NCBI GenBank assembly: GCA_044892525.1
Contig: CM097887.1
Coordinates: forward strand, 23,622,001-23,686,000
DNA: 64,000 nt
Direction of reading: 5' to 3'
Origin: Schmidtea polychroa
Taxonomy: Eukaryota
The position numbers and the translations under genes are program-made. This document shows positions 23,550 through 57,545 of this stretch, one piece after another. Below the pieces are notes generated by a model. It worked only from the letters and a program-made list of their open reading frames with translations, was not told the origin of the DNA and did no database searches. Numbering within the stretch: the stretch's first letter is position 1; each line of letters begins with the position of its first letter.

Positions 23550-24814
23550 CTTTATATTAACTTCGCGTTTGATTGATTGATTGTACCACGCAAATTTTGC
23601 GACGGCAAATTAACTCACTTCCTGTGATAGGATCGAGCTGAAATTAGGCAGATTGATTCGTTCTATCAAAATTTCAGATGGATGGAATGTAATTGAAACT
23701 AAAATTTTAAAATTTTGAATTTGTATGCAGAAATATTGCTAAACCCCTGAAATGTTAAATTTTAAAGATTTTTCGAATTTTTGAAATGTTTTAATGCAAA
23801 AATCATCTGTCTGTGAAGCTCGAGTTGCAAAAGAAAGAGAAAAACGGAAACTAAAAAAACAACAGGAATCACCAATGTTGATTACGTTTGGCGAAAAAAA
23901 GTAACACAATCGACGACCGACGACAAGATGAATCGCCAACATCTCGCAAATTACAGTTCTCAATTCAACGCGCAATTAATGCCAGTTGAAGCGTAAATGG
24001 CAGTTTCTGTGTATGGCCATCGAATTTGTGAGGTTTGGCCACAAGTGTTGTTATGCAAATCAAGTTTCGAACTACAGATTTGGTGAAAGATCTCCCAATT
24101 ATCTTTCCATGGAACTTTCCAACAAAAAAAACTCATCCGCAGTCCAAAAAGACAACAAGCTAAATCATACTGGAACAACCTTGATCCCGATAAGATTCCT
24201 GAAGAGATCCGAAGTCCGATTGCTAGCTCGCATCATTCCGTTTTTGAAGATCGTCAAGTACGGTGGCATCTTCGGACAATATTGCTTCAAGGGTCAAGCT
24301 ATTGTTGGACTCAAGGTCATGAGAATCAGAATGGAGCTGAAAGGATTGGAAATGGAAATGAATCGTTAAAAAACTGAGCATTTTACAAATAAACTAAAAA
24401 TCAAATATTCCATTAAGTAAAATCGGGAAAAATAACTAAGCAAGAGAATTAAATAGTAAAACAATATATTAAAACAACAAGAAACCTAAATAAGAAAATC
24501 ACGAATAAGGAACAACAAACGACAAACCAAATAAACCTATAAACCAATAAAATAAAATAATAAAATAATATAATGGAATAACGATCGAAAACTAAAAACA
24601 ACCAAAATTTAGCATAAAAACTTGAAATAAAAACAAAAAGAGGCAAAATAACAAAACACAAGCGGAATTATTATCAGAAATTCACCAAAAAATGCGGAAA
24701 AATAAGAATTAAATAACCAAATAAGATAATTAAAAAAACAAATAAAGAATTTATAAAAACAAATAAAAAACCCCAAAATAAGGGAAAATAGTAAAATTAC
24801 AAACTAACTAAGTC

Positions 24815-24840
24815 CTGATTGGATGAAAATTATTATATAA
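24815..24840 (+). promoter_or_regulatory. Inverted CCAAT box plus TATA box of LTR-A
   Basis: CTGATTGG 24815-24822 and TATATAA 24834-24840 at the end of a ~450 bp A-rich tract; mirrored in LTR-B. Confidence 0.65.
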
Positions 24841-26966: not shown

Positions 26967-27742
26967 ATGACAGAATCAAACCCAGCTATTCGCAGTTTAA
27001 AACCTTGATAATCCTGCTCAGACAAGAATATGGACATTAAAAAACTTCAAGAGCATATAGGGGTCCTGAAAAAGCGTATCGAAACGCTCGAACACACGTG
27101 GTTCTCCCCGCCACAGATGAAAGAGGAAAAATGAAAGTCCTCAGATTAAAACACTGTCGGGACAGTTTGTTGGAGGAAAGCCGCTGTCTGAGCGTCTGAC
27201 AATTAAGGCACAATCTGAAGCCTTACATAAAATCTATACAGATTCGGAAATACAGAAACGGGTGAGAGAATACCCAATTAAAGATTGGACCAACATCTTT
27301 CCTAGCCACCATCAAATTGAAGAACTCAAAGCGTCTGAACTAGCAAGTTGCTCGGGACATGGACCCATGTTCCCAGAAATTTCAACACCGCTTCTAAGCA
27401 CAACATCAAAGGAACCAACTTCTGTCGCACCCAGTCTTCATAACCCTTCTAACGACATTTCTGATTCCAATGCCGAGAAAGAGGCAAATGCGATCCCAAA
27501 GAAGCGAAAGCGGCCTTGAGAGCCGAGCGGACGGCAAAGCGAAGGGAAAAAATGGAAACCCTGGAAGCCACGTTATTTGCGGATCAGTCAGCTATTGAAA
27601 AAATCAACACTAAACAATCAATCAATCAAAGACACTCCCTGATAACTTCAGAGTGATTTCCTCAATAACTACAGTACCTCCGACGGACCCTTGGTTGCAA
27701 GTTGATATAGATGCGCTGTTAACTGAAGGGGAAATGACATAA
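26967..27742 (+). pseudogene. Degenerate paralog of the LTR-B ORF
   Basis: TTTCAG acceptor 2 nt before the ATG. Gives SCSDKN...IKKLQEHIG..KKRIETLEHTWFSPPQMKE...HCRDSLLEESR...QSEALHKIY..NIFPSHH...KKRKR...VDIDALL, with stops and frameshifts. Confidence 0.85.
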
Positions 27743-28233
27743 ATCTCTGCATGGGTCGAGCCGATGCAATTCGCAAAGTATCTTGTAAATAGCATGTGCG
27801 GAAATGCTGCAAATTTCATCGAGACATTCATAAAACTGATCTTGTTTTCATTAACTAATTTAGCTAAGTGTTTTTGATGTGATTAAATTAATATATTTGC
27901 TATGGTGTTTGACTTCTAATGATAGTTAGTATGCTTCAACCGTTTGCCTTGATGGAGATGTTTTCCTTATTCCCGAAACTGGAATATTGTCAGTGTAACC
28001 GGCGCTACTGGCTCGTTTCATTTTCCAGGCGTCGATCTGCCTTCATTTATAATAACATATTAGCATTCTAGTTTGCCGTTCATGGATTTCGTCGATACCG
28101 GTTCAAATTTCTCACTAGGGTGTACATCAAGGTGATTGAATATATTGACAGGGAGACGAGTATGTCTGAGTTTAGTGACGAAAGTGAGAGATATAAAACA
28201 TCGGACCAGGGACGTGAGAATGATGTTAAGGGA

Positions 28234-28355
28234 TAAGTCCTTCTATCGGCACCCGCAAACCTGAACCGAGAAGACTGTGGAGAGTAGTCCTAACATAGGG
28301 GCTCACCTGTCCACCGATTATGACCTGCGTATATATTTCCAACATGAATCATCTC
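28234..28355 (+). other. Conserved structured element near the 3' end of LTR-A
   Basis: TAAGTCCTTCTATCGGC (28234-28250), then GTGGA-GAGTAGTCCTAACA-TAGG-GGCTCA-CCTG-TCCAC (28277-28314); homologous to 43771-43855. Confidence 0.7.
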
Positions 28356-29369
28356 CACAGGTATACGTAAGGGAGATCAATCGTAAGTCATGAAGGGTGT
28401 TTAGGGAAAAAACCTGAGCATAACATCAACCACCCTAAGCACCCAACACAATTTTGTCGACACAAGACATATTCGAACTGGGCAACTTCCTTTGATGCTT
28501 CCTCGATCGATTGAATCTGCTGGATTGATAGTTTTCACTGAAACTTTGGAGAATTTGGATAAAAAGTTTTGATAAAAATTAAGAAAGTGAAATATAGAGA
28601 GTTTTAAAAACTATGGTTTTGTGGTTAAATAATTAAGTCTTGAAAATGACCTTTCTCCAGTACAACTAGTGACTATTAAACTGAGAGACAGTCGCAAAAT
28701 TGATTACACATTTTATATTAACATGTCTTTCATATTACAGAGCTAACATGAATATAAAAGAACGTAGGGATATCAGTGAGCCGAACGCGCTGATATTAAT
28801 TTATACATTTTGAATGTTTATTTATTAGTCATATGCGTAGAATTTCTCCTTATTTTCGGTCCAATGTATCAGTGATCACTGTTTTTAGAATAGTGTAATT
28901 TTAATTTTATCAACAATTTCAATATAAGCCCCTCTTGATCTTGAGGACCTAGACTGAAGCCTAGATAGTTGATAGGAAAATCCCGCCCTGCTTATACGAT
29001 GGGAATAATATAAACAAAATTTCTGTTTTATTATAAAGTAAGCACATATGCACAGTAACAAATTTGAACTGCTACTGCCTAATGCACAGATGAACAAGTC
29101 AAAAATACAATCTTTGACTCTCAGCCAATATTTTCTCACGTGGAAACATACGTTTCTGGTCATGAAGAGGTTAACTATTTTTCAAAAAATTATTTTTGTT
29201 TGATAATTATCCTCCTTGCCATAATGTGTGTATTACATTTGTTGGGGCTGGGCTCGCTTAGGCAGCAATTTTGATAGCCATATAGAGGCTAGGGTTATAA
29301 TTATAATAATAATAAATAATTACTTATTAATAAAAATAGAAATAATTCCTATAAATAAGTTAAGATAAG

Positions 29370-29373
<4 letters not shown>

Positions 29374-29453
<80 letters not shown>
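29374..29453. repeat. (TA)n microsatellite, ~40 units
   Basis: Direct inspection. Confidence 0.95.
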
Positions 29454-29454
<1 letters not shown>

Positions 29455-30359
29455 TATAATTAACTAAGTTATGAAATTTATAAACATAAATATGTGAACG
29501 ATAACTCAAAAATTAGAGAAAAAGTTTGTGTTTCGCTGAATCAATATTGATTACAAGCCACTTCCAGAAAACACTACCAGCTGAGCAATAAGCAATAATT
29601 AACAGCCGCAAATTTGGAAAGTTATTCAAAGAACACAAAAGAAGCAAAGCATTGAATTATAATAAATTCCAGCTGTCGCTCATTTAGAATTGTATAAAAG
29701 GAGATTCTCAAATCGAGAAATTAGAACGGAGAGAATACTGAAAAAGCTATATCAGCTTAAAGTTACTCGTGAAACCAGAAAGAAAATTAAACGATATAGG
29801 ATTCTTAACCATAAGGTTATTTGAATTCTATTTAATAATAATTTTGTTAATTTAAAAATTTCACAACCTGAAGCCGACTCGTCTGAACAATAAAAATTGC
29901 ACACAAGAAGCAGCAATTCGGCCTGACTTGCTCGTCGGCTTAAAAGTTTAGAACGGAATCACTTTAGGAAACGTTAGACCGACCTTGGTCTAATCGATTG
30001 CGCAAACTTCGGAGAACCCCTCCATCTTGACCAATTCTTTTATACAGCGCTGAGAGGCATTAGTTTCAGCGTTCGAATAACCGATTTCTTTGCTTAGAAA
30101 TTAGCGGCATTTTTGGGCTACACAATATTCAATTTTGTATATTTTGTGCATAATAAATAAATCTTTAAAAAAGTATCAAAGTCTTGGTTAAATCATATTA
30201 TTTAAATATTTACACGCATATATTTCTATACATCTTTGAAGTCAGATATAGTCTGTGTTAGGAAGAATCTATCCACCAGAACCTAACACATTTATGTATT
30301 TTTTCGTGTGCATTATAATTATGGATTTATCTTATATTTTGTTTTATTAAGCTTTAGAT

Positions 30360-30930
30360 CAATGGTGGCCAACCTGCGCCCGCGGAGCACATGCTAATAT
30401 TTTATTCTTTTAATTTGCGAAACCACTAAAAGAACATTGTACAATGCATAGTTCGTATCATATCTCATATATGGAAGTATCTCAGAACATTAATTCAACC
30501 ATCATTACAATTTCTTCCATGGTATATTTGTGTATCCATTGTGTGCGTTTTCGTCATGTGACTCATGAGAATTTACGATCGACTTTTATATATACATTGA
30601 TAAGAATACAAGCTGCTATCCTGTATTAGTTAAAAAAGAAGACCCACAATGAGATCAAGTAGTAAAAACGTTGAACCAAAGAAGAGACGAGTTCCTGAAG
30701 AACTGAGAAGTTTGTAAGACAGATGAACTAAAAAACTATTTTTTCGTGGAATTTGAAACAAAGCGAATATGCTTGATATGCAATAATTCTGTTTCTGTTT
30801 TGAAAGAGTATATCATTAAACGGCATTAAGTTTGATAAGTATGAAGGGCAATTTCAATAAGACCAAACAAATGAATTAAAAAGAAAACTTTCTGCACAAC
30901 ATCGGATATGTAATAGAGCGGCTCAAAAGT
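30360..30930 (+). mobile_element. hAT (GTF2IRD2-like) 5' remnant
   Basis: Terminus-like CAATGGTGGCCAACCTGCGCCCGCGG; degenerate FFVEFETKRICLICNNSVSVLKEYIIKRH. Confidence 0.7.
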
Positions 30931-31082
30931 CAACATGCTATGGAAAAGCATATGCAGTGGCAAAAAAATCGAAGTATATAGGGTATTTCGGTATTATATA
31001 TTTACATTTCAAAATTATATATTGAAATTTCAAAATTATATATTTATATTTCAAGATTATATATTTTGATGCGAATTTAAAA

Positions 31083-31540
31083 ATGATTATTAGAAAATTA
31101 ATGGAAGAATCAACTATTTTAACTCCGAACACACCTCAACGTAAGACACGAACTCCTGTCAACCTAGAAAAAATCAATACAATAAATCGACTTAAGCAAT
31201 CAGGTCAATGCACAAAATTTATCGCCGAAACATTAAATCTAAGTATATCAACAATTACTAAATTATTGAATAATATCCACTGTTGTAACGAAGAAAATCG
31301 AGAACTAAATACTATTCTTAAAAAGAGCAATAACAAGAAGATGAATAAATAAATCATCACGAACGGTTTCTACTGATGTGATTAACCAACGAAAAGTATA
31401 TTCAAGAGAAATGCGACTTATTCCCAAGTGAAAATTAATTTTTTTAGATGAGAGTGGATTTAATCTCCACACAGGTGCTCATTATGGATACTCACCTGTC
31501 AAGGTTGACGCTTTTCAAATATTGCCATCAAACAGAAGCA
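31083..31540 (+). mobile_element. IS630/Tc1-like transposase 5' fragment
   Basis: HTH (IAETLNLSISTITKLL), then FLDESGFNLHTGAHYGYSP...ILPSNRS with the first catalytic Asp. The frame runs straight into the cassette ORF below. Confidence 0.75.
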
Positions 31541-34500
31541 GGACAGGTAACTCTAGAATTACAGAAGAATGTGGGAGAAGCTGGACCCGAATCATGCGAC
31601 TCTCTGGAATTCCAAACTCAGATGCGACCCGATACATTATGAGCATTCTGCTGGAGACAAACGATCACAGCCGAGAAGGAGATTGCATGGCCCTCAAGCT
31701 TCTTACCTCAATAACCAAGAAGACAGAGGAGGAATATGAGATAAACAGGCGAGATTGTTTGGATTTTTCTAATAATTTAAATAACCTTAATAATAAATTA
31801 AAAAAGAATTCTCAAACCCAAAAATCTTTAAATGATGATAGCCTTTTTGACCAAAACAGAAATGAATACAACAAGATTGTTAATAGCTTTATAAATCCTA
31901 CCCTGCAATATATGCCTATTGACAGGGGAAACGTAGATCTTAATCCGAATAAGCCCAGTTATAGAGACGCCCTTATTGGAAGCAAATCATCTTATAATAA
32001 ACTCCCCATGGGAAAATCCTTCTCTGTGCCTCCAAATAATAAGACGGTATCTAATAATCATCGAAATACCCTTAAAGACTTCGAAACTGAAACTATGCCA
32101 ACACCAGTACCAATTAATGATAATAAAAATAGACCTACTAATAACCCAAATAGGAACAATAATCTTGGTTCTAACAGATCAAAAACCAGTTATTATGATA
32201 ATAAAAACAATTTGCATTATAATACATTGAATCATTATTCTAATAATTATGAAACTACTTCTTATAAAAATTCAAATAAACTGAATCATAATGATATTAA
32301 AGCTACCTCTACTAATAACTCTAATGATTATACAATCACCGGAATATTAATTGCATGGAGAAACCCGATTAAAAATGATTACATGATAAATGTAAACGAG
32401 GCATTCACAAGAGGGGAAAATACGTTGATGAGGGAAGCAATGAAAGGACACAATTTATTCGAAATTCCAAACCAATTATTAGAACGAGGAATAAAGTTCA
32501 CGAACCATAAAGACGAACAGCTACTAAAGAAACGAATCGACACCTTCGAAAAATCAATATTTCAGTTCATAAACAAAGTATGAGATAGATATTGGGTTAG
32601 TGTATTATATATGATGAATACGATGAACAATATCCGCGAGAATTACCTAGACATTATTCAAGTACTTACAGCAGAAGAACGAATCAATAACTCAACCGGA
32701 AAGGAAATAAAAATAAAGAAAGGAGTATCAAAGGAACCGAAGTCGCAAACGAATCAAACTACAACAAATAACGTTACCGAAACAAAACTAATAAATTCAG
32801 ATCAAGAAACAATAATACGCAAAGCCAAAGAAGTGTTCTTCGAAGAAATGCAAGAGTTATCAGACGAAATGATATTGTCAAAAATAATGAAAACCGTACA
32901 TACGTATGCAAGAGATCAAACAACGAATTTAGATATAGGGAAAATCAAAACCTTCATGCCACGAGCATTCACTATGGTAACAAAAGATCAACGAACACCA
33001 TTACAACAGGCAATACTGGCAGCAAAAGAAAACCGAGCGATAACGATCATATGAATCCTCAGAGATTTGGGTGACGAAACCAACACGAAAAACGAACAGG
33101 GCGAAACAGCGATGATGTATGCAGCTATAACAAAAATACACCCAAAAACACTACACATACTACATCAATCCGGATCAAGACTAGACGAGATATCAAACGA
33201 AGGAAACTCCACAATGGATTGGGCAACCATACAGCCAAACCTAGAATTGATCAGATTTATTTGCAAAAATGCGACAAGAGAGGAAGTTGAAAATATCTGC
33301 AAAAACACATCTCAATTCCAGTGGAATACCGTACGAAAAAATCTGGAAGCAATGAAATTACTATTAACATGGAAAATACCGCAAAGTAATAAATACGCGA
33401 TAAACGTAAACGAATTTTATGAAAACGGAGAAAATGCGATGGTCAAAAATACATTAACTAAAGGGGGGACACCAAAAATCATACTAATTGTATTAAATAG
33501 AGAAGATCTGAGATTCACAAAAAACCAAAACGAACAGCAACGAATTGGAAAACACCGCCGTGTACAACTAAGAGAATTAGTAAAAGAATGGAATCGGAAA
33601 AGACACGCAGCAACCGGAAGAAAGGAGTTCGAATTTGAAGCTAAATTAGCAAGAAATAGAGTGTTAACAGCATATCGCAGACTATTGAACGATATAAATG
33701 TCGAGGACGACATTTTAAACGACGGCGGGGGAGACAAAGACGATGATAATGACGGGAAAGGTCAAAAGGAAGATAAAGAGAAAAGAAAGCCGGATGAGAA
33801 TAACCAAGAAAACAAAGACCCAGGTACGGAAAAGGAGGGAAACAACCCGGAGAACGAGATGAAAGGGGAGGAAAAAACAAATAATGGAAAACAGAGGGTA
33901 TGCCTACCTTTCACCAACAAAGAAATGGAAACAAATATGATATTATTGATAATTGTGCTGACCATGATAGAGTTAGTAACAGCCCATGGAGGAACGAGAA
34001 CGATAGAAGAGACCAAAGAAGCGGATAATCACGACAACAAACAGGAAGAACTAAAACAAGAAAAGAAAAAGCAAGTGCAAGAGCAACAATGGGATCTAAA
34101 AGAGGAATGGAATCTAAAGGAAAGGTGTATACTAGGAAGATGCATGTCTAGAGCATATCAGAGATTAGTGTTGATAAACGAGGACACAGAACCAATAACG
34201 GAAGTGGGAATACAAGAAGCATACCAACATCGAAACGGGAAGAGAATAACGAAGGTAAAATGGAAGGAGATACACCTAGGGAAAGGAGGCGAGATAGCGA
34301 TAACAGAACTCCAACCAAGGAAAGAACACAAAGTCTGTATCTCAAGGTTAGGACCGGGAGAAAACTGCCTACAATATGTAATACAGCAACAACCACCAAA
34401 AGAATATACGGTCTGTATCATAAGGAAAGGACCGGAAAGGGAATGCCGACGATACCCGGGGAAAAGAGGAAAGAAAAGAAAAATCAACGACAAAGGAGAA

Positions 34501-34974
34501 GAGAAGGAAAAACGCAAGAAAACCAATGAGAAAAACCAAGACAATTATGTGTCAGAAGAAGAAATGGAAAAAATACAAAATATGGCAAAAGAAGGTATCA
34601 GCGAGGAGATAGCAAGAATACGAGGGATGATGAAGGGAAATGGGAAAAGGGGAATCGAGAAAAACACAAAGACGGTATCAACAATTACGAACAAAGAAAA
34701 ATCAGAAATTATCAGCGTAAATCAGATGATATGGATCAGTGGAATAATAATAACCCGAGCGTTCATAATTATAACGGGGGGGGACGATAAAAATAATCCG
34801 AGACAAAAGACAGCGTCACCAACTCGAAATGATCAGAGTCAGAAATTTCCAACATCGAGTGAAAAGACCCAGCAAAATAAGCCAAGAACAGTGGATGGAG
34901 GCCTGGAATACGCAGCGCCCTCCAAATCCACGGATATAGAAAGGGTTATGACTGTATATAATTGTAAAAAGTAA
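31540..34974 (+). pseudogene. Cassette ORF1: ~1145-codon ankyrin-repeat / membrane protein, 5' end missing, two in-frame TGA
   Basis: ORFs 31522-32583, 32611-33054 and 33067-34974 are one frame broken only by TGA at 32581 and 33052. Order: Asn-rich region, three ankyrin repeats (RTPLQQAI, GETAMMYAA, GNSTMDWA), charged linker, hydrophobic MILLIIVLTMIELVTA, tandem Cys motif (KEHKVC..C / KEYTVC..C), second hydrophobic segment. Confidence 0.7.
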
Positions 34975-35101
34975 GTATATCTTATGTATATAACAGTACC
35001 ATATTTTTATATAAACGCGGTATAAATATTATAAAAGCTCGGGTAAATAAACAATATAAAATTAAATAAGACAAAGATTGAGAATGTATATAAAATTAAG
35101 A

Positions 35102-35461
35102 ATGGATCAAGTAAATCACGAAATAAACCACAACATCGCAACCGAAGACATGTGGAAGCAACAATGCGCTGTGCTAGCACAATTAGTATCTAATCTACAA
35201 GAGCAAGGACTTACGATGCAAAGAAACCTAGTCGATAGTCTAAACAGAGGATTTAGTTATTTAAAAATAATTGAGGATCAGAGGATAAAAATCGAACAAA
35301 TGCAAAGAGAGATAGAACGGATAACACGATATAGTCAGAGACAAGAAATCGAATTAGAGAGAATGGCGGAAGAAGCAGAACAAGAAGAAATGGAAGACTG
35401 GTCAGAATGGTTAATGAGGAGAGAGGAGGGCGGACATGAAGCCGACTCGTCTGAACCATAA
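35102..35461 (+). CDS. Cassette ORF2: small coiled-coil protein with acidic tail
   Basis: Open ORF with heptads. ATG at 35102 follows TTAAG-A. Confidence 0.6.
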   Translation: MDQVNHEINHNIATEDMWKQQCAVLAQLVSNLQEQGLTMQRNLVDSLNRGFSYLKIIEDQRIKIEQMQREIERITRYSQRQEIELERMAEEAEQEEMEDWSEWLMRREEGGHEADSSEP

Positions 35462-35545
35462 ATAAAACCCAAACTAGATGTAAATAATTGTAAATAAAAT
35501 ATCGAACCTGTATCGATAAGAAACTATATGTATATAATTGTAGAC

Positions 35546-36881
35546 ATGGATAAAGAGAGACGAGAGGAGTTTAACGTAATCATTGAACTAGTCAGAAATT
35601 CCACAGTAATCAAAATACAAAAACATGTTATGTGCGGAATATGTGAAAAGTTGTTAAAAGAACCCCATCAAACCAAATGCGGATGCAGATTATGCAAAAA
35701 ATGCATAGAAGAAACAATAAAAAACAGACCACAGTGGTGTCCGGTATGTAAAGAGACACTGATATCAAGTTTAGAAGATACCAATGAAGATAAGGCCGCA
35801 GTAAAAGATATGTTGAACGCTAATCTGGGATGCAAAAATACTCCATGCGAGTGGAAAGGATTAATATGGAAAGTAAAACAACATATGGGGGAATGTATGT
35901 ATAGAGTCAGCCAGTGTGAACGATGCCAGAAAATAATCCAAGCTAACGAAGAAAAAGAACATCAAAGTCAATGTGAAGAAAGGCTAGAAATATGTGAGTA
36001 TTGCGGAGAGATAGACACATGGAAAAACTTAACCATCAAACATCACAATGTACAAGAAGAACAGGTATGCGCTGAATTCTGTGGTGAATGCCCAAATGGA
36101 TGTGATAAAGGCGGAAGGATAAAAATAGCACAGCACTTAAAGGAATGTGAAAAGAAAAGAATGATATGTGTACTAGGCAAATGGGGCTGTCGGAAACTAC
36201 TACACCGAGGGGAATTACCACACCACTTAACAGAAAATGTAGCCACTCACGCAGAAATGTGGTCAACTGCGTTACAAGAAAATGAAGAAAAGGTTTAACA
36301 AATGGAGATAGAAATAACATCGTTGAAAGCATTGGTAAAGGAACTATTGGAGGAAAGAGAAGCGTTCGAGGAAGCCCGAGCAAACATAAAGATGCAAATA
36401 AATCGGATAGAGATCAGTAATAATCAGGCCAAGGAACTACATCAGAAAATAAACGAAATAAATCTAAACGAGGTAATACCAACAGCGCCTTATATATGGA
36501 AAATAACAGGAGTAAAAGAAAAGATACGAAAAGCAAAAACTGGGGAAGAGACAAGAATAACAAGTCCTGCATTCCATTCTTGGAAGAACGGGTATAAAAT
36601 GAAAATGAAGATATATCCCAACGGGGACGGAACCGGATTAGATACACACTTTTCGATAATCTTTCTGTTATGTAAAGAGGAATATGACGAAATATTAGAA
36701 TGGCCGTTTCAGGCAAAAGTCGACATTATAATAATGAACGATCAAAGCATACACGAGCAAAGCTTCAAAACAACGGGGAATCAGATAGCCTACCAGAGAC
36801 CCCTCGACGAAGAAGGATCAGCAACGGGAGCACCTACGTTCATTCTGCAACGGAAAGTGGAAGAGATGACGAGAAACGACA

Positions 36882-36957
<76 letters not shown>

Positions 36958-36996
36958 ATGACAGTGAGGAAAGACGGAAAGAGCCGAACAGAGTAG
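35546..36996 (+). pseudogene. TRAF: Cassette ORF3: intronless TRAF-family protein (RING, TRAF zinc fingers, coiled coil, MATH)
   Basis: RING CGIC...CGCRLCKKC...CPVC; CKNTPCEWKG; CERC/CEYC/CPNGC fingers; MATH YIWKI...GYKMKMKIYPNGDGTG..HFS...EYDEILEWPF. One in-frame TAA at 36296. A (TA)n expansion shifts the last strand DTIYIKMTV out of frame. The specific paralog is not assignable. Confidence 0.92.
36884..36954. repeat. (AT)35 microsatellite inside the TRAF MATH domain
   Basis: 71 nt AT run in place of the ATA TAT ATA codons. Confidence 0.95.
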
Positions 36997-37182
36997 CCAG
37001 TGTGAATAATGTTGTATATAATTTGTATATATCGGTGCATATAACCAATAAAATAGTATATAATAAAGGTATGGGAACCTCAAATACGACAACCCAAAAA
37101 TGAAGCGAAAAATCTGTGAAAAACATTAATTGAATAATAAAATTGTTACAAAAATGAATTTATCAATACCTCTAATTTAGAA

Positions 37183-38091
37183 ATGACACAAGAGCAAATA
37201 ACCACAAGTACTGAGGGTCCAGCAATAATCAGAATTAGTGAGGAAAACAAGAGGAAGTGGACTACAGTAATGTCTCAATTAGCCAACCTAACTAGAAATC
37301 ACATTGAAGAGGCTAGGGAGTATGAAAATAATAAATATCGATGGCTAGTAGACAATTTGAGAGCCGAGGCAGAAGCGTGCAAAAGAGCCTCTAAGTGGGC
37401 GTCGTTAGAAAATACCCGTCAGGAAGCGCACAGTCACTACCTAAAACAGCTAGTGCAAGAAGCAAGAAAGAGACTTACTGATGAGAACACAAAACGAGAA
37501 GCGGAAAAGCAAAGAGAAGGAAGGAAAATGATCCACCTATTGGCAGAAGCCAGGAAATGGAAGCGACAAAGCAGAGAGATAATAAAGGAAATGAAGGAAT
37601 TGCCTACGAGATTAAAATACGAAAGCGAACAGGGCAAATGGGAGGAGAATCTAATCCTAAAGGAGGAACAAAAACGGCTAAGAAAAATTGCCGCCCGAAG
37701 TCAAACATGGCAGACTAAGGCCATGGAGTTTGAAAGACACTTAGCAATGAAGATCTCCATAAGGGAACACGAAAATGCCGCAATGGAAGAGATGATACTA
37801 CAGCAATCGGGACGAGTCGTGGAATTAGCAAATAAAGTCGCCGAGCTAGAACGGGATAACAATGGGTATAAAGGAGCTCTGGAACAGAGAAATATGGTAC
37901 TGGAGGGGAAAAATAAAAAGCTAGAGATCGAAAGGAAAATGTATGATGAAAATATTAAAAATTTAGAAATAGAGATCGAAAAATGGAAGGGCGACGAAAA
38001 AATCAAGGCACTAGACAGACAAATAGAGGTGAAGGACGAGGTACCTCACCTATTTGCTCGACGAGGAACTCAACATTTCAAGGGCACTTAG
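37183..38091 (+). CDS. Cassette ORF4: 302 aa E/K/R-rich coiled-coil protein
   Basis: Open ORF with continuous helical/heptad character. ATG follows TTTAG-AA. Confidence 0.7.
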   Translation: MTQEQITTSTEGPAIIRISEENKRKWTTVMSQLANLTRNHIEEAREYENNKYRWLVDNLRAEAEACKRASKWASLENTRQEAHSHYLKQLVQEARKRLTDENTKREAEKQREGRKMIHLLAEARKWKRQSREIIKEMKELPTRLKYESEQGKWEENLILKEEQKRLRKIAARSQTWQTKAMEFERHLAMKISIREHENAAMEEMILQQSGRVVELANKVAELERDNNGYKGALEQRNMVLEGKNKKLEIERKMYDENIKNLEIEIEKWKGDEKIKALDRQIEVKDEVPHLFARRGTQHFKGT

Positions 38092-38401
38092 AGATGAAAT
38101 TCACAAGCTGAGAGCTCAAATTCCCCAACACTATGTACCTTACGACCCCGTTGCTATCCAGTTACGGTCTTCAGTCGAGAGCGACGAAGGATACGTGGGG
38201 CAAGAGGAGACCTTCGTGTAAATAAATACTATGATTAAAAAGACAAAAAAATTATAAAATCGGGACCTATATCCCAAACAAAAAAATTAAAGGTATAGTA
38301 AAAGTATCCAAGGGACTGTAACCCTAATTATCTAAAATTGCATATGAATGTATAAGTATAAGCCGCATTATAGCGCACTATTAATTGTACATATTATAGA
38401 C

Positions 38402-39103
38402 ATGAAGATTGAAGAAATAGTAGAGCTCATGAGTGACGTAGAAGAAAGAGAGATGGAAGCAGAAACCACAGAAACACAAATGCTAAAGGAAGAGTTATGG
38501 GAAGAGAAGCGTGAAAACGAGAGATTAGTAAACAAATACATAGAAGACCGGAAAATAATAAAAGTACTAAAGAAAGAGTGTAAAGTATTAGGAGAAGTAA
38601 AGAGAAAAGTTGAAGAGGAAAACGAATGACTTCACGAACAAAGGAAGCGAGGGAAAAACTGGGAAAAGATCGCGGAAGAATTATGGCAAGAAAGAGCCAG
38701 TAGAAAAGCAGACGAAGTAATTAGCGATTATTGGAAAACAGAGGCACGGAAACACCAAGAAAGCCTGAAAGAGTTACAACTCCAACTACATCATAAACAA
38801 AAGGAATGTGAAATAATGAGAAGAATGAACCACAAATACCAAGAAATAGACGATGAGAAGAGAAACAGAGAAGATGGAGAAAGAGAAAAGTACTTTCTAC
38901 AACTGATGAATCATAAAAACTTAGAGAGAGCCACCCAAGAAATAAAAGTATTAAAAAGAAAAATAAAAATCCTAAAACAACAGGTAGATGAAAAAGACAA
39001 ACAACTAGAAGTACTACCCGAATTAAGAAAACGGGTAATAAAAGCAGAAACTAAAGTGATGAGAGCATCTGAGAAAGCCCGAAAAAAGAAAGCCCTTCAA
39101 TAA
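38402..39103 (+). pseudogene. Cassette ORF5: coiled-coil protein with one in-frame TGA (38627)
   Basis: ORFs ending 38629 and starting 38816 share a frame with no other stop. ATG at 38402 follows TATAG-AC. Confidence 0.7.
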
Positions 39104-39157
39104 TTAAAGATGAATAATCGATGTGAATAATGGTAAATAAAAAATATGTATAATAGT

Positions 39158-39796
39158 ATGTGGCCCGGAGCAACCCTCGTAATAATGATAATAATAATAA
39201 ACGAAATTCAAGCGAAACAGTCAACCCAAAAAGGCCAGAAGATTACCGAGAATCAGATTTTCCCACAAGACCTCATAACCAAATTAAGAAACGGAAGAAA
39301 ATCCTACAACCACATCCAGAAACAATGTTGGAACAAAGCCGTCTGGCAAAAGATTCAAACGCAACTCATCCTGCAAACCCAAAAAATCGAACAACTCAAA
39401 ACTCTTCTACAAAAACAAACTATCCAACAATCCTTGAAAGAAACCATCGTGAAGAAGGAAGCCAAAGAGAGTCAAGTCTTACTCTATATTACAATCAGTG
39501 AAACCATCATCATCTGCACGCTAGTCATCTGGAAAGCGTATGATATCCATCGAACATGGCAAAGAAATCAGCCACTTACCGAGAAACCCAAAAGAAAGAA
39601 ACCACGAACAAGAAACGTACCAAAGCGGACAGTACATTTTCAACAATCCGATCCACCTGACCTATCTCCCAGCCAGATACCCGCGACAATTCAACTCACC
39701 ACAGCGACAACATCGACAAGCCATCCAATCCAGAATTCCCAAGATTCTCGACAATCAACCAGCGATGACAGTAATCATGACATCGACTATCCATGA
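39158..39796 (+). CDS. Cassette ORF6: predicted type I membrane protein
   Basis: Signal peptide MWPGATLVIMIIIINEIQA, Q/K-rich helical ectodomain, TM VLLYITISETIIICTLVIW, basic then S/T/P-rich tail. ATG follows AATAG-T. Confidence 0.65.
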   Translation: MWPGATLVIMIIIINEIQAKQSTQKGQKITENQIFPQDLITKLRNGRKSYNHIQKQCWNKAVWQKIQTQLILQTQKIEQLKTLLQKQTIQQSLKETIVKKEAKESQVLLYITISETIIICTLVIWKAYDIHRTWQRNQPLTEKPKRKKPRTRNVPKRTVHFQQSDPPDLSPSQIPATIQLTTATTSTSHPIQNSQDSRQSTSDDSNHDIDYP

Positions 39797-39921
39797 ACTT
39801 TGTGTATATAAATCTGGTCACCTTAAGTGACATCTGCTTGCTTTATATTTGTCCTTTAACCAGTAATATAGTCTTGTTTTATTTTTGCTTTTTATGTATG
39901 CATGAAGTAAGTTGAGTATGC

Positions 39922-39959
39922 AATTGCGGGACGCAATTTTGTCGGGTCCCCGAGTGATT
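39922..39959 (+). promoter_or_regulatory. Pre-LTR hairpins at the expected polypurine-tract position
   Basis: AATTGCG-GGA-CGCAATT (7 bp stem), TTT, then TCGGG-TC-CCCGA and GTGATT immediately before TGTTGGG. Not a canonical purine run. Confidence 0.4.
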
Positions 39960-40292
39960 TGTTGGGCTGAGTCGAAAACTTAACTTTTGAAAATTTAGAA
40001 AATAAGACAGTAGGATATTAAAGAAAATAAAAATAAAATAAATAAATTCAGGAATAAAATAGAATAAGAAATAAGAGAAACAATAATTAGAAAATAAGAA
40101 TTAAAACAAAATAAAAATAAGAAAAATTAAAATAAGACAATTGAATGACGAACAAAATAATGTAAAATTCAATAAATAATGAGGAAATTAAGGAAATAAA
40201 TAGAAAATATAGTAAAAATAAAGGAAATAAGGAAAAATAACCAAAAAACAGGAAAAAGTAAATTAAATTAAGAAAATAAGCGGTACTCAATT

Positions 40293-40329
40293 CTGATTGG
40301 TCCGCATACATGCAAAAATACTATATAAA
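40293..40329 (+). promoter_or_regulatory. Inverted CCAAT box plus TATA box of LTR-B
   Basis: CTGATTGG 40293-40300 and TATATAAA 40322-40329 after a ~300 bp A-rich tract. Confidence 0.7.
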
Positions 40330-42752
40330 CAGACACGAAACTCATTGCAATCACTGTTAATTTCAACTTGCTATAGACGATAACCACGCAGAATTTACGG
40401 AACCTACTCAAAGAATAATATTCAACACGAAATCATCGCTATTTAAGGAAACGACAGGATCAAGGACTAATAGACAAACCTCACAGGAAACTAGCTCGTA
40501 AACTTCGACTCAGCCCACAATAAATTTCGAATCGATAACTATAGTAAGAAAAGTTTCTATTTGTTTTTAGATTATTAATTATTATGAAGTATTACCTAAC
40601 GATTGAAAACTTTGTTTAATAATAGCGTGTCTTTTCATTTGATTTCCCCGTAATGGATTTTGATTAAATTAACTATTTTAATGTCTTATAGTAAACATTC
40701 ATAAATAAATTATTTATTTCAGGAAGTTTTTGATGATGTGTTTTCATGCATGAATATCTTACGAATCTAAATTTTTATGAGAAACGTGGCGTTAAGACGG
40801 ATGGCGTCATGGTAAGAGGTGCCTTCGGGAGCTCTGCCGGTGGACGTGCATCGTTTCAATCACGCAGCTGGATTGGGCCTGAAAGTGAGGGTCCAATCGC
40901 TGAAGATGACTTAAAATTTGATTTGAGTGACAGAAATTTGGTCATAGTAGTAGTTCTAAGCCTATAATGGAGTATAGCTATGCGATTTACAGTGATTGAG
41001 GTGAACACTCTATCTATACGTACAAGCTCCGAGGGTACTGAGTAGCTCTTCGAGAGAAACATGCGAGCTAATAATGAAAATCTCTGAAGTGACTGTCTCT
41101 ATTCGTTCGAAACTTGGCTCTAAGCTCGAGTGAAATTTAGTCTCCATTTACTTTGACAATAATTACGTTTTTCGGAAATCATCTTTTACCTTCTAAGAAA
41201 GTACAATCACGGCGGGTATAAAAGAAATTCAATCATAAATTAAGACATATGAGGACATTTTATTTAAAACACCGTTATGAACAGATTGTCTACTACCTGA
41301 ATCAGTCTCCTTTTCTACGACTCCACATGAGAGGCATCATCGTCGAAACAGCTCTTATAGTCACCTTCTAGTTAATCTAGGGAGACGTTTCCGCACCTGT
41401 TATATCCAACGGCGGAAGACACGATAGTTAGTGACGAAATCCAATTTCGTAGAACAGTTGTGAATTAATAGGCAATGATGCCATCATAAAATTTTCTAAC
41501 ACACGATAAGTAGATAAGTAAAGTCCAGCACACGTTAGTAGGTTCTATGAACACGGATTGGTGAGAAGTGAACGATTTGAATTTTCCAGCGTTACGTGCA
41601 TGGATTGATAAGAGGTTCATCAAGCAACACATGAATAGATAAACCTTATGAGAGTGATTGTTGATAAGCACACTGCCACTAATCTCACCTGACAGTACAC
41701 ACGATAAGATTTTGAGCAATGTGAATAGCAAGGAGTGATCACATTAGATAAGAAATAGCACGAAACGCAGAACTCCGGTTGTTAACTCTCAGATCATGTT
41801 GCTGATAAAATATTAATGTCACTAACCAGATAAATTAACCAAATCTGTAACCGACTGCAGAATGTCCAGACGCATTAAAGTACATTTATAAATTGACCCT
41901 TCTCAATTATCATCGAAATTGTTGGGTAATTATTGTAGACAATCCTAAATTTCAACTAAGCAATACGATAAAGTCATATGAGCCTTTACTACAGTGAATT
42001 GTCGGAAGTACGGTTAAACGCCTGAATAGATAAAATCCCATCCAAATGATTTCCAAAAGAATCCTAAATAATTAGACTAAATTTTCTAACCTAACTAATA
42101 AGCTTGTATTTTAAAAATTTCTAACCCCTTAGTAAATAATGCATGCTTATAACCCTGTCATGAGAATCACGAGTTACTCTACCGTTTGAGTATATTAATA
42201 TAATCCTACACTCCGGATAACAATCTCAAGGTGTGGTTTGAAGGTAGCACCAGTAGAAGGGTATGACGAGTGAATTGACTGAATTCAGTAGCGCTAATAG
42301 TATAACTCTGCAATAGTTTCGTTTTTCTAGAGACCTTAACTAGCAGCTCAAACAACAACCTAAAGTTAATTAAGCAAAAACCGACAGTACAGTAAATGAT
42401 AATACAACCTACTTTAACGGGTAATCAGCGATATTTTGAGTAATCACCATAGGAAAAAAATAATAGTTAGTAGTAGTCAACCAACCAGTAACAGTAAAAC
42501 GAATTATAATTAACCAGGGTAAGCAAAAAGCGGAGAATATTATAAGTAATTATTTAAGAGTAGTGTACGACATATCTGGCGCTACCGCTAAAATCGATCT
42601 AATAATAGGTTCAATAATTCCAAGGGAGGGTTCCTTTCTCTACTTCCTGTGTTTGTTTATATCTGATAGTAATTCAGCCACTACTCCCAATTCCCAATTC
42701 ACAGTCATAGTATAACTTAACCCTCATGTTTCCTTCTTTACAGTTATTCAAC

Positions 42753-43502
42753 ATGTTACCGAACAACAAGTCAGTACTACAGCCTTGCTTCTCCTGTGCA
42801 GATAAAAATGCAGTGATTAAAGATCTACAAACCCAGATCGGTCGATACAAGCGTAAAATCGACGAGCTGGAAGGCACATGGTTCAGCCCAGTGCAAATGA
42901 AAGAAGTGCAGAAAAAGCTATACCGTAGGGAGCACTGCCGGGACGCTCTAATCTCCGAGAGCCGCTCCCAACGAAGCTTAATTAAAGAACAATCCGAAGC
43001 GCTACATAAGGTATATGTACAAGCAGCAACAACTAAGAAAATCGTTCAAATCCCCCTCAATGAAGCCGATAATCTGTTCCCAGTGCACCACGACACCTCG
43101 GCGAAGTCATCGTCTCCATTTAAGAGATCATGTCGTGAGTGTGTAGAAACCGAGCTTTCACCGAAATGTCTAGATATTATCTTCACGGGGACTAGTAAAG
43201 CACAGCCCAACATCATACCCACATCCGCAGGGCCGCAGGTGAATCAACCAATATCGAAACCTAAACGCCGGCAACTATCGAGGGCCGAGCGCAAGAAGAG
43301 GCAGCGCGAACGAGCGTTAACCAAATCAAACAACCCCTCAACGGGAAATCCGATCAATATCGACAACTCCCACATATCCATCGATCTAACCACAGGAATC
43401 CCAGCGCGGATTATCTCAGCCGCTGGTGTGACATGGGAGGAAAATGCCGCCGAATTCTTCGATTTAGATGAATTGCTAAAAGACACCGAGTGGGAGAAAT
43501 GA
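42753..43502 (+). CDS. LTR-encoded 249 aa protein (CxxC, coiled coil, basic NLS-like tract, acidic-hydrophobic C-terminus)
   Basis: Intact ORF 9 nt after a TTTACAG acceptor (AG 42742-42743). Motifs CFSC, KPKRRQLSRAERKKRQRER and EFFDLDELLKDTEWEK*. Homolog at 26967-27742. Confidence 0.8.
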   Translation: MLPNNKSVLQPCFSCADKNAVIKDLQTQIGRYKRKIDELEGTWFSPVQMKEVQKKLYRREHCRDALISESRSQRSLIKEQSEALHKVYVQAATTKKIVQIPLNEADNLFPVHHDTSAKSSSPFKRSCRECVETELSPKCLDIIFTGTSKAQPNIIPTSAGPQVNQPISKPKRRQLSRAERKKRQRERALTKSNNPSTGNPINIDNSHISIDLTTGIPARIISAAGVTWEENAAEFFDLDELLKDTEWEK

Positions 43503-43770
43503 ACACCCACCGCGAAATGCTCTCCTTGACTACCATCTGATATACTCTTTTGTCTTGTATTTTCATTGATTCTCTCCCTTATGATAGTAACCTTTGCAAT
43601 GTACAAAATTCAGTGTTATAATATTATAATAAAAGTGTTGCTCTTATCTGTCTTTTGGTGAGGAATTACGTACCGATTTTTGGGTGAATGAAAGTTTTCT
43701 AGATTTGAAGTGTCTCAGTAAATTTGCATTCGGCGTACTTTAGCGGGGGTTTTGACAGCGTGATTAGACG

Positions 43771-43890
43771 TAAGCCCTCCTATCGGCGGTCGTGTGGAAG
43801 AAAGTCGAGGCCTCAGTAAGGAGTAGTTCTAAGGCAGGGGCTCACCTGCTTACTGGCGTCTCGTCGGCATAGTACAGTTCCAACGTGAAA
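43771..43890 (+). other. Conserved structured element near the 3' end of LTR-B
   Basis: TAAGCCCTCCTATCGGC (43771-43787), then CAGTAAG-GAGTAGTTCTAAGG-CAGG-GGCTCA-CCTG-CTTACTG (43814-43855). Confidence 0.7.
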
Positions 43891-44028
43891 TAATTCACGG
43901 GACTATGTTGAAGGATAGGTTATGTGGGGTTCTACTCAAATTTGACAAAAGGATAGCTATTAGGCGAAAATGGACAATCACCCCTTAGAGCGTTAATATA
44001 GGGCGGTCAACCGAGTGGTACCCCAACA

Positions 44029-44303
44029 CTTACGAAAATGAAACAAATTTTGAACAAGCTAGGAATAATAACTTCGAGAAGTACAAAAATTTAGCAATTG
44101 ATATAGGCCATGCACACAACTGCAAAACCTCACTGCTAACTCTTGTTATTGGTACACTTGGCACATGGGATAGGAAGAACGACAAAGACCTAAGGATAAT
44201 TGGTCTGAGTAAAGCAGAAATTAAAGCTCTAGCAAATAAAGCCTGTACAGCAGCCGTAATCAGCAGCTACCACATATACAGAGAGCACATCTACAAAGAC
44301 TAA
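44029..44303 (+). mobile_element. 3' end of an REL-endonuclease non-LTR retrotransposon (NeSL/R2/R4-type); target of the LTR element
   Basis: (P)YENETNFEQARNNNFEKYKNLA...LVIGTLGTWDRKNDKDLRIIGL...SSYHIYREH*. Not in the ORF track. Confidence 0.85.
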
Positions 44304-45399
44304 CACATACCTCCATATTTCTTTATATATTATCTATCTCTCAAAGCATTACCTTATTTATATCAAATCTATTCTCTATTATACTAAAATATTAACTATC
44401 CCTTTGCAATGATGAGATTGATAGATGGTATTGTTTGTATTTTGAGTACTGCGTATGATTGTACTGTTATTGATAATAGCAATNNNNNNNNNNNNNNNNN
44501 NNNNNNNNNNNNNNNNNNNNNNNNNNNNNNNNNNNNNNNNNNNNNNNNNNNNNNNNNNNNNNNNNNNNNNNNNNNNNNNNNNNNNNNNNNNNNNNNNNNN
44601 NNNNNNNNNNNNNNNNNNNNNNNNNNNNNNNNNNNNNNNNNNNNNNNNNATACTAATAATAATATTAATAATAATAATAAAGAGTAATCCCTTAAGCTTA
44701 ATTGACAAAAATATATTTGCAATAACCTAAACCATACACCTCTTCGGGTAACCGACTTATTTACTAGAAAGGACCCACCATGATGAATATCCAATGATGA
44801 ATAGAGCAATACCACTCCGACTGCCTGACACTACCTCAATCGTCAATCACTTAAAAACATGGCCTGCCGGAGCTCCTTAAGCTGCACCTGTAGTCCAGCA
44901 ATCAGAAAAACATATTAATCAGAAGCCAACCAACGTGAAAATCTATCCAGTTATAGACAGGGAAAAACCATACTCTACTCCAATGACATATTTGACACCT
45001 ATCCCTCAATCCAATCAAACTACGGAACCCAAACCCAACTCCAATGACTAATTTCTCAAACAATCAAATCAATCAAACATTTCATATATCGCATCACTTA
45101 TCTTATTGTGTTTTAACGTTTAATCCAAGAAACCTTAACCCAATCACTCCAACCAATCCAACCAGAAGGCCATAGTACCCTATGTGCCAATATCCAAATT
45201 TTTGTGTTGTCTTACTTTATATCTATATTATAGTAATTTTTAGTAACGTCACCACCACACCTGGCTTACGACAACCTTTCTAAACCAATAAATATCAATT
45301 CCTTCCACCAATACCTTCCAAACTATACCTATCAATACTACATCTTCCTTTCAAACCCTTAACCCTCAATCCCATACAATCAGTGTTCTCAGTTACAAT

Positions 45400-47170
45400 C
45401 CGAAAAAGATGATTGATATTGATAATGTTGATATTATTATGAAACACCCGCATATTGACAAAATACATCGAACTAAAGTAGCATGTGTTACACCGATGTA
45501 GGTACTACTATTGGAATCAGATAGCGAATAACATTATACAGCAGTTCCTGATTTACAACGACTAATAAATTTCCGCAAAACTCATAGTTACACAGTCCGT
45601 ATCCAATGCAGATGGTGCGAGACATGTTTCAGAAAAGAGAAACAGCTTTTACCAAGCATGCAATATTATGTAAAAAGAATCAATTGGGCACCAATTATAC
45701 ACGTTACCATATCACAAGGACCTAAAATTTAATGAATGGTCAAAAATAGTAACTCCTCCATTTGTCATATATGCCGACTTTGAAGCGATTTTGCCTCTGG
45801 ATAAATGATATCACCAGAAACATCGATAGCAGCGGAGTTGTTACTGGTAATTAATTTTACAGGGGCCACAAAATATATGGATTTTATTTTGGCAGATTGT
45901 GTATATCGTTTTCTGGTTGAAGTTGAAAATATTGTAAATAGTATCGTGAGGGTTTATTACAAGAAAATGGGCCATATGCAAATGAATTTCCTCACTAATC
46001 AAGAAAAATTGCAGTTCCGCACATCAGTAAATTGTTGTGAAAAAAACCTATGTTAGAGCAAATGAGATACCGTCATCACTTTACGGGCAAATATCTAGGA
46101 CCCGCATGCAATGTATGCAATAAACAACGAAAAATCAGAGAAACATCGCCTGTCTTATTTCATAATCTTAAAGAATATGATTTACACCATATATTGAAAT
46201 ACGGACTCAATCAGTTTTCTCATCGGGGTCCCAGTTGCATTCCAAAAAGAACTGGGAAATTTTTAACATTGATAGCATGGCTGGGAAATTTCATAATAGG
46301 ATTTATAGACTCATACCAAATTGTTAATACTTCGTTGTACAATGCAGTTAAAACATTGAACGAATTAGCATTGATTCGTTCAGTTTTTAATACTTGAACT
46401 AATATTAATAACACAGGTATATTTCCTTACGATTTTGCCACCAGTTAGGAAATCCTAGAAACAACGTATGAATTGCCTTCTATTTAGGAAAATGTTACTA
46501 ATGAAGCGTATGAAATAGCGCGACAAATATGGTAAGAAACAAAATGCGAAACTCTAATGGATTATTTACAAATATATTTGAAGCTTGATGTGTTTTTGCT
46601 TGCCGATTTTTTTCTACAATTTAGAGTAAAATCAAAAGCACATAACGGACTCGAGCCGCTTAACTTTTTTGGAATCCCTGGAATGACTTAGGCATTTGAA
46701 ATTATCAATTGACATGGAAATGTATAATTACTTCGAGGGTGGAATCCGTGGTGGTCTCATATTTGTAAATAAACACCACGCCGTAACAGATGATGAAACA
46801 GAGTTACTTTATATCGATATAAACAACTTGTACGGGTGGGGACTAAGCCAGAACTTACCATGTGGTGGATTTGAGTGGATATATGATGAAGAAGCGTTAT
46901 TATCAATTAACAGATTAACAATTAACAATTAATATATGAATGATTGCGTTAATAATAGACTGGAATTATTACCATATGGATACACTTAGAAAATGGAATT
47001 AGTTATTCCATGTAATATTCATGATTTATTAGACTATTTTTCAGTGGCTGCTCAGAAAATGTGTCCACGTGTAGCTATCCCTCAATTTGCGCCTATGAGT
47101 GTGAGCATCCATGGATCTACTTCGTAACCATCTTAATTGATTATTACATGCCGAATTGAGGAAATATCAT
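45400..47170 (+). pseudogene. polB: Polinton/adintovirus-type protein-primed DNA polymerase B, heavily degenerate and 3'-truncated
   Basis: PPFVIYADFEAIL (Exo I), HHFTGKYLGPACNVCN, VLFHNLKEYDLHHI, FIDSYQI, GIFPY, YLKLDVFLLAD, EGGIRGG, LYIDINNLYGWGLSQNLP. Many frameshifts and stops. Confidence 0.9.
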
Positions 47171-48255
47171 TTGTCGTGTATTGTGGATAAATAAATCTTT
47201 TTTATATAAATGTTTTGTGTTTTGTTTTATAAATATGTAGTGTCAATAACAATGACCATTTTTATGTAAATAGTATATTATCAATTAGTTTTTTAATATT
47301 TTTACGTATATATTAACTACTGTAATCAATTTTTTATGAAAGTTTTCATTGTTCTAATCAATTTTTGAAACTTTTAATAAATATTATAATTAAAATTAGT
47401 GAGTATCAATGCAACATAGTTGTAATTTAAACAAGGCAAATGAGACACACGTGCACGAATCTGATTGGTCATGCTTTGTTATAAATACGTGATGTTTATT
47501 GAAATTAGTCATATTTTACAAATGAAAAAGAAAATGATGACTGAAAAAAATGAAATCCAATAAATGATAGAGTTCAATTGTAACCAGTTCAATTATTCCA
47601 CAATTACAAAATGTATTTTTTTAAATATTCCAAGTTAATAAATCCGATAAAGTTATGCAAAACTCCTTATCCACATCTGATAGCTATCTTATCACACGAT
47701 GATATTGATGCCTTGAAAAATGTTTTTGCGAAAATAAATAGTCATATTCAAATCACTATAACTGCATTTTTCAATGACCTTTATACTAGATTTTATGATG
47801 GTTTTCAAGAAATCATCTTTAAAGAGAATGAAAATTGGTATATCATAATGTGTATAAGCAAATATTAAGAATAGATCAAAATAATATATTTTCTCCAATA
47901 TCGCGAATAGATCGTGCAAGACTTGCTTTTGGATTATATATATTAATTGTTTTCAAATTTGGGTCACTCAAAATCAAATATTTAGAGCTAACCTGATCCT
48001 TTGATAATAATATTTTGTTTAGATAATTTGGACAAGGCGATTATGCCTTCTTTTTCGGAGCGCCTAATTCCATTTCGTTAAAATGAATTTAGAAGACAAA
48101 GCGATGATTTACGTCTTTCTTATTTTACCTGAAGTCGTGAGATATTTTGTATGTTAATTACTGATATCATGCTAGGTTAATTATAAATAGGGATAGGATA
48201 ATAATTTATTAACTATTATTAATTTTACTCTTATACAAACGGTGTTTTAAATAAA

Positions 48256-52289: not shown

Positions 52290-52305
52290 TTTATAATAAA
52301 TAAAA

Positions 52306-53085: not shown

Positions 53086-53096
53086 AGCTTGTCGAC

Positions 53097-55972: not shown

Positions 55973-55988
55973 TTTTAAAAGTTAAAAA

Positions 55989-57441: not shown

Positions 57442-57545
57442 TTTTTATATTACTAAATTAGCAATTGCGCAGCTTGCTAGTTTTTAAGATTTAAAATTTT
57501 TAGAATTTTATAAATATAAAATTTTAAAAAATGACAAAAATCCGA

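Follow-up and report, generated by a model that had tools for sequence, protein, structure and literature searches.

The window analysed here is a 64,000-nt stretch of DNA from Schmidtea polychroa, and it contains a cassette of six co-oriented open reading frames (ORFs), a decayed copy of a high-copy, Burro-like element, in whose short spacers the 8-mer TGTAHATA is concentrated. An earlier note on this DNA had listed eleven perfect copies of the motif; all eleven coordinates match, and every copy lies on the plus strand, which is the coding strand. The motifs are candidate Pumilio response elements (PREs) in short 3' untranslated regions (UTRs) of accessory mRNAs that would be processed separately, a reading whose probability is put near the middle of the scale.

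Number, form and position of the motif

TGTAHATA has 36 matches in the whole window, and 11 of them fall within 34953..39810. In 776 nt of spacer, a set drawn so as to take in both motif sites at ORF ends, these 11 compare with 0.80 ± 0.88 in dinucleotide shuffles, and 11 is reached in none of 5000 shuffles; the excess is borne out. The minus strand of the same spacers holds no copy, and neither do the remaining 7.4 kb of cassette coding DNA. The earlier assignment of ten copies to spacer and one to ORF1 changes in part: 34953 does lie in the last codons of ORF1, but only nine copies lie in plain spacer, and 38217 overlaps the stop of a putatively coding, 49%-GC continuation of ORF4 in another frame. 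The strictly non-coding spacers (738 nt) hold 9 motifs against 0.70 in shuffles, a number that none of 3000 shuffles equals.

Other backgrounds give a similar picture. Markov models trained on the spacers themselves predict 1.6 (2nd order) or 1.9 (3rd order) motifs, and among 343 overlapping AT-matched windows of 740 nt outside the element, 278 hold no copy, 57 hold one and 8 hold two, which is the maximum. When the search is extended to all gapped 8-mers, 17 of 1000 shuffles have a word of this kind in 10 copies or more, and the P value of TGTAHATA, corrected for the whole set of words, is about 0.006. Elsewhere in the window, over 55.5 kb, the two strands together have 25 matches, where shuffles predict 15.4 for the full 64 kb, or about twice the shuffle expectation; this excess is without strand bias and does not account for the cluster in the cassette.

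The whole 8-mer is selected, not UGUA alone. TGTA by itself is mildly enriched in the spacers (18 against 10.4 expected from shuffles), yet 11 of these 18 continue as HATA, with ATA at bases 6–8; outside the element, 25 of 539 do. Among variants of TGTATATA with one mismatch, an excess is seen at position 5 alone (4 against 0.49, P = 0.002), while each of the other seven positions has 0–1 variant, which equals background. Position 5 is described as the flexible position of the PRE (PMC5758885, PMC4995099). The tandem TGTAWATA-AT(T)-TGTA, in which the TGTA are spaced by 10–11 nt, occurs four times in the window, always in cassette spacers, and the 14-mer TGTAWATAATTGTA is present in three copies and in one more with a 1-nt insertion. 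Decay of TA runs was considered as the origin of the motif and rejected, since a perfect TATATATA is absent and the variants do not spread over the motif.

One cassette site (motif 10), taken with the AAT in front of it, has the same letters as the core of Nanos response element 2 (NRE2) of hunchback, and AAT is also reported in front of Nanos-relaxed sites (PMC4995099). The imperfect tandem halves at 34963 and 35539 are preceded by AAT as well. The U at −1, a signature of Nanos, stands before 6 of the 18 spacer TGTA, as counted by eye, and is not enriched.

The motifs cluster at the ends of the genes. Eight of the eleven lie between 21 nt before and 28 nt after a stop codon, and an AATAAA follows 4–61 nt past the nearest motif for ORF1, ORF2, the TRAF-like third ORF and ORF4. 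Within −25 to +120 nt of a stop, 10 motifs are found at the six cassette stops (five of six positive) and none at 24 stops that belong to other ORFs of the window. Three copies (35085, 35529 and 38386) are placed 17, 17 and 16 nt before the next ATG. The earlier note had missed that these three stand shortly ahead of the acceptor-like start of the next ORF and not in a 3' UTR. Of the several copies said to overlap or adjoin AATAAA, two do overlap it (35489 and 38217), but for 34953, 38386 and 39803 the following 90 nt contain none.

Table 1. TGTAHATA motifs and ORFs of the cassette, with positions in the window
Feature	Position	Strand	Remarks
Motif 1, TGTATATA	34953..34960	+	ORF1 last codons; first half of a TGTAWATA-AT-TGTA tandem
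Motif 2, TGTATATA	34985..34992	+	11 nt past ORF1 stop; 61 nt before AATAAA (35046)
Motif 3, TGTATATA	35085..35092	+	17 nt before ORF2 ATG; downstream of poly(A) signals
Motifs 4 and 5, TGTAAATA-AT-TGTAAATA	35479..35496	+	18 and 28 nt past ORF2 stop; motif 5 overlaps AATAAA (35493)
Motif 6, TGTATATA then ATTGTAG	35529..35543	+	UUNYAG acceptor-like site, 2 nt before TRAF ATG; motif 17 nt before ATG
Motifs 7 and 8, TGTATATA-ATT-TGTATATA	37013..37031	+	17 and 28 nt past TRAF stop; before AATAAA (37047)
Motif 9, TGTAAATA	38217..38226	+	overlaps likely ORF4 stop and AATAAA (38221)
Motif 10, TGTACATA, AAT in front	38386..38399	+	followed by TTATAG, acceptor-like; 16 nt before ORF5 ATG
Motif 11, TGTATATA	39803..39810	+	7 nt past ORF6 stop
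ORF1	31594..34974	+	5' end abuts Tc1-like fragment; in-frame TGA at 32581 and 33052
ORF2	35102..35461	+	coiled-coil-like; putative start AAG/A ATG
TRAF-like gene (third ORF)	35546..36996	+	RING, zinc fingers, coiled coil, MATH (Pfam)
ORF4	37183..38221	+	coiled-coil-like; start TTTAG/AA ATG; frame break near 38040; likely end TAA 38219-38221
ORF5	38402..39103	+	coiled-coil-like; in-frame TGA at 38627
ORF6	39158..39796	+	signal-peptide-like start, one hydrophobic segment (by eye); start TAATAG/T ATG

Candidate Pumilio elements and the alternatives

The sequence around the start codons suggests that each ORF would be expressed after splicing to an acceptor immediately ahead of its ATG. YAG-N1-2-ATG is found at four of the five downstream starts, compared with 1.9% of spacer positions (a post hoc comparison), TAG-N1-2-ATG precedes one of 66 internal Met codons, and all spacers are shorter than 200 nt. 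UUNYAG, reported as the acceptor motif of parasitic flatworms (PMC12582326), is exact before two of the five. The flatworm spliced leader (SL) is described as ending in AUG (PMC12582326), and an AUG brought in by the leader would share the frame of none of the five ATGs (offsets of 1–2 nt), so that trans-splicing is no more likely than a cis-spliced common leader. With acceptors so placed, the three pre-ATG motifs would be lost from the mature mRNAs on either side.

PUF proteins are reported to repress or destabilise mRNAs through deadenylation (PMC3868585, PMC11182014). In the proposed mechanism each ORF would give rise to its own mRNA, by means of the acceptor before its ATG (joined to a cis-spliced common leader or to a spliced leader) and its own AAUAAA, and host Pumilio would bind one to three PREs per UTR and recruit a deadenylase. 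The TRAF, coiled-coil and membrane cargo would then be kept low where Pumilio is active, in neoblasts and germ cells, and would rise elsewhere. Neoblasts and germ cells would be the cells in which the element must survive and be inherited, and an element in stem cells would gain from low levels of TRAF and membrane proteins there. The three pre-ATG motifs would act on read-through RNA alone, or belong to the acceptor region. Every step after the motif itself we infer. A review describes DjPum as expressed in neoblasts and needed to keep them (PMC5855632), and Burro RNAs are reported among the most abundant transposon RNAs in neoblasts, Burro being among the most active elements there (PMC6884822). 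The host PUF control proposed by the earlier note is favoured at the level of sequence by the selection of the full 8-mer, the variation at position 5 alone and the clustering at stop codons.

Conservation in the family could be followed over 34550-35950, a region that is covered by the contig alignment and holds six of the eleven motif sites; the contigs include those of two presumed RNA runs, and the details concern 40 of 362 substitutions, 12 of 22 indels and 24 of 194 loose contig ends. The site at 34953 is kept in the family contigs, with an inserted base just behind the motif, and in three X5 contig ends the second TGTA is intact. The bin that holds 34953 is the second deepest of 30 in both X1 and X5 by summed depth, which is a weak hint, and the bin that covers 35479 and the first bases of 35489 comes 19th and 20th. 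Before the TRAF-like gene, AATTGTAGA.ATG is kept in two divergent X5 contig ends. As to conservation in family copies, proposed earlier as a check, 34953 is kept, two of the six sites (34985 and 35085) are disrupted in part of the copies, and none of the tests of conservation was significant.

Several observations weigh against PREs in separate mRNAs. In one X1 and one X8 contig end, 34985 reads TTTATATA; 35085 loses 1 nt (35091) in one X5 contig, which has 1165 of 1832 depth, and in one X8 contig, and it also differs in two X1 contig ends. No substitution falls in the 48 motif bases among the 40 of 362 considered, which is not significant (P = 0.24). ORF5 is the only ORF without a motif behind its stop, although a near-match, TGTATAAT, is present at 39147, and three of the eleven motifs lie beyond the nearest poly(A) signal, ahead of an acceptor-like AG. 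The contigs show no GT..AG joint among the ten joints listed, and no leader and no spacer poly(A) end among the 24 of 194 loose ends, and none of the contigs listed extends to a 5' end. The motif pairs, which form tandem arrays, may stem from local duplication. Folding prediction makes nine of the eleven sites less open than their flanks, in RNA that, being AU-rich, folds weakly. A-runs behind 34626 and 34648 in X7 were considered as poly(A) ends and rejected, since they are inside the A-rich ORF1.

The motif might instead be a nuclear RNA-processing signal, a CFIm-like UGUA enhancer of polyadenylation and/or an element that couples cleavage to the next acceptor and so resolves a polycistronic cassette. 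Such a role, which we regard as unlikely, would agree with the position of the post-stop motifs upstream of AATAAA in four of six UTRs, with the regular spacing of the four TGTA tandems and their restriction to cassette spacers, with the fixed distance of three motifs from the next ATG and with the frequency of YAG before the starts. CFIm, however, is expected to place no constraint on the bases after UGUA, and it is the ATA half that is fixed here while UGUA is mildly enriched. The poly(A) sites of S. mediterranea are described as lacking an upstream UGUA, and a homologue of CFIm-59/68 is reported as not found (PMC5068929); the earlier claim that the motif drives each poly(A) site is weakened accordingly. 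The acceptor-like start of ORF4 has no motif, and no motif other than UUNYAG is reported within 50 nt of trans-splice acceptors of parasitic flatworms (PMC12582326). A somewhat lower probability is assigned to the spacers being products of duplication or slippage of one AT-rich module, with copies that are neither independent nor selected as PREs. The recurrence of TGTAWATAATTGTA, the tandem arrays at 35479-35497 and 37006-37031 and the two sites broken in relatives would all fit, but nine separate clusters are left after neighbours are merged, the sequence flanking the motif differs from spacer to spacer, and the variation at position 5 alone, with no perfect TATATATA, is unlike the spread of variants that decay of TA runs would leave.

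It is very improbable that the motif acts as DNA, as a core promoter word of the TATA or initiator type that would supply every ORF with a short promoter. The constant distance of 16–17 nt to three ATGs, the strand specificity and an enrichment of TATAWA in the spacers (16 against 9.1) speak for this, while eight of the eleven copies follow stops and are 57-186 nt from the next ATG or have none, TGTAAATA and TGTACATA are poor TATA boxes, and the copy at 35085 is not kept in some relatives. Moreover, a distance of 17 nt is too close to the ATG for a TATA box. The probability is slighter still that the long element RNA is a decoy titrating Pumilio in stem cells in the manner of NORAD. The number of PREs, 11 in 4.9 kb (2.3 per kb) compared with 17 in NORAD (PMC5758885), and a family depth in the thousands in the contig alignment are in its favour, but the sites are divided among the genes, one to three each, at stops, like those of target UTRs, and decoys are said to require a very large excess of PREs (PMC5758885).

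Comparison with known systems shows both likeness and difference. The motif agrees with the PRE (5'-UGUAHAUA, as in the hunchback NRE and in human PUM1/2 targets) in the exact consensus, the free position 5, the sense strand and the location near stops, and one site shares with hunchback NRE2 the AAU triplet bound by Nanos. In contrast to known PREs, the candidate elements of the cassette ride on a mobile element, once per cargo gene, and three of them precede the start of the next gene. Like the long non-coding RNAs NORAD and HCG11, the cassette has many perfect PREs in about 5 kb, but here the RNA codes for proteins and the sites are spread over several spacers. The arrangement resembles the SL trans-spliced operons of flatworms in having co-oriented genes less than 300 bp apart, with UUNYAG at two and YAG at four of five starts; it differs in that a leader ending in AUG would be out of frame with all five cassette ATGs and that no leader is seen among the contig ends listed. 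In Herpesvirus saimiri, HSUR1/2 provide a case of a parasite RNA with conserved PREs that recruits host Pumilio, although these are described as small non-coding RNAs with PUM as a cofactor, whereas the cassette offers candidate UTRs of transposon mRNAs (PMC13692250).

The motif itself is textbook, and parasite RNAs with PREs are already known from HSUR1/2. If PREs do act here, a transposon times its own accessory proteins through the host's stem-cell translational repressor, which bears on the persistence of giant planarian retroelements in neoblasts. Among the 3–20 top-ranked matches of each search in the open-access literature, no account was found of a transposon cassette that carries PREs for one gene after another. 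A fuller scenario, which is speculative and on balance doubtful, is that of an operon-like cassette of a giant planarian retroelement, with an acceptor before every ATG and with Pumilio (partly Nanos-Pumilio) elements in each mRNA, whose cargo is switched by the stem-cell or germline state and whose many-copy RNA may also titrate Pumilio in neoblasts.

The cassette and its element

The six ORFs, which have A-rich third codon positions, lie behind a Tc1-like fragment located near 31535. In-frame stops at 32581, 33052, 36296 and 38627, a (TA)n run in the TRAF-like gene and the frame break near 38040 mark this copy as decayed. The contigs aligned to 34550-35950 number 331 in X1 and 492 in X5, are mostly 80-95% alike and include pieces that bridge ORF2, the spacer and the TRAF-like gene; their number and divergence indicate a high-copy, diverged family.

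The likeness of ORF1 to ankyrin is weak: the Pfam match to Ank_2 (E = 1.2e-4) is below the cut-off, and Atlas ankyrin matches stand at 0.97. An internal repeat in ORF1 (32344-32442 and 33358-33456, 39% identity over 33 residues) fits ankyrin-like repeats, and two hydrophobic segments are visible by eye near 33940 and 34730. Homologue searches found none for the last segment of ORF1, and the Atlas gave no usable match for its residues 270-620. A 29-nt stretch at the 3' end of ORF2 (35434-35462) recurs with 93% identity at 29866-29894, 5.6 kb upstream and outside the element. No homologue of ORF4 was found in the search made for it, and ORF6 has no significant Pfam family.

The TRAF-like gene has a MATH domain (Pfam E = 3e-23) and is broken by an in-frame TAA at 36296 and by the (TA)n run at 36884-36955. 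Its nearest relatives are unnamed proteins, several of them truncated, which begin at a Met matching 35546; of ten relatives looked up, a single one has a name, TRAF-2 from the planarian Dendrocoelum lacteum, which makes a triclad host probable. An expansion of TRAF genes in planarians has been described (PMC6109357), and, given a TRAF gene in a high-copy repeat with such relatives, elements may carry some of the expanded TRAF/MATH genes of planarians.

The element is Burro-like and may belong to Burro. It resembles the giant gypsy-like Burro/GYPSM1 retrotransposons of planarians, which have long terminal repeats (LTRs), in high copy number, ankyrin and MATH/TRAF cargo and coiled-coil ORFs. 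Ankyrin and MATH cargo is described for Burro-like giant gypsy elements, and in a Burro-like element of D. tigrina MATH is in a separate accessory ORF (PMC6431247). The relevant section of this review describes neither PREs nor splicing. The cassette differs in being a truncated copy in which no gag, reverse transcriptase (RT), integrase or LTR pair was seen, which is why it is called Burro-like rather than Burro, and in its five separate downstream ORFs with acceptor-like starts. No motif or Pfam match to gag or to a PR-RT-RH-IN polyprotein was found in 28500-44480, the copy being 5'-truncated, and no matching LTR pair was found within the window, the 5' end of the copy being missing.

A search of viral contigs found nothing. 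Three metagenome loci (L001-L003) were considered and rejected, as they are chance matches of 30 residues in 55%-GC DNA with stops and have no similarity to the window. Rfam gave no match at gathering score in the window, with two chance matches in 39700-44480, and thus no hammerhead of the Terminon type was found.

Other features of the window

Two diverged units of like layout, each made of an A-rich tract, CCAAT and TATA-like boxes (by eye), an ORF and a structured block, occupy 40000-44400 and 24400-28500. The ORF at 42726-43502 matches 26997-27336 (tblastx E = 2e-24), and the structured block common to both (43780-43890 and 28240-28360) has no Rfam match. These units may be LTR-like or may represent the 5' part of NeSL/R5-like elements. 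Related ORF pieces at 43989-44303 (+) and 60760-61314 (+) look by eye like the C-terminal restriction-like endonuclease ends of non-LTR elements and have no Pfam match.

Decayed Polinton-like genes, comprising pPolB pieces, an A32-like ATPase and PLA2-like and double-jelly-roll capsid pieces, are found at 45400-47200 and 51900-57450; a Tc1 element whose inverted repeats are 217 nt long (53544-55068) interrupts them. Within a hAT-like transposase fragment, 49747-51021 consists of three near-identical tandem copies of 425 nt, possibly an assembly artefact. A host alpha-L-fucosidase gene with introns, located at 11485-18100 (-), served as a control for acceptors and for stop-proximal motifs.

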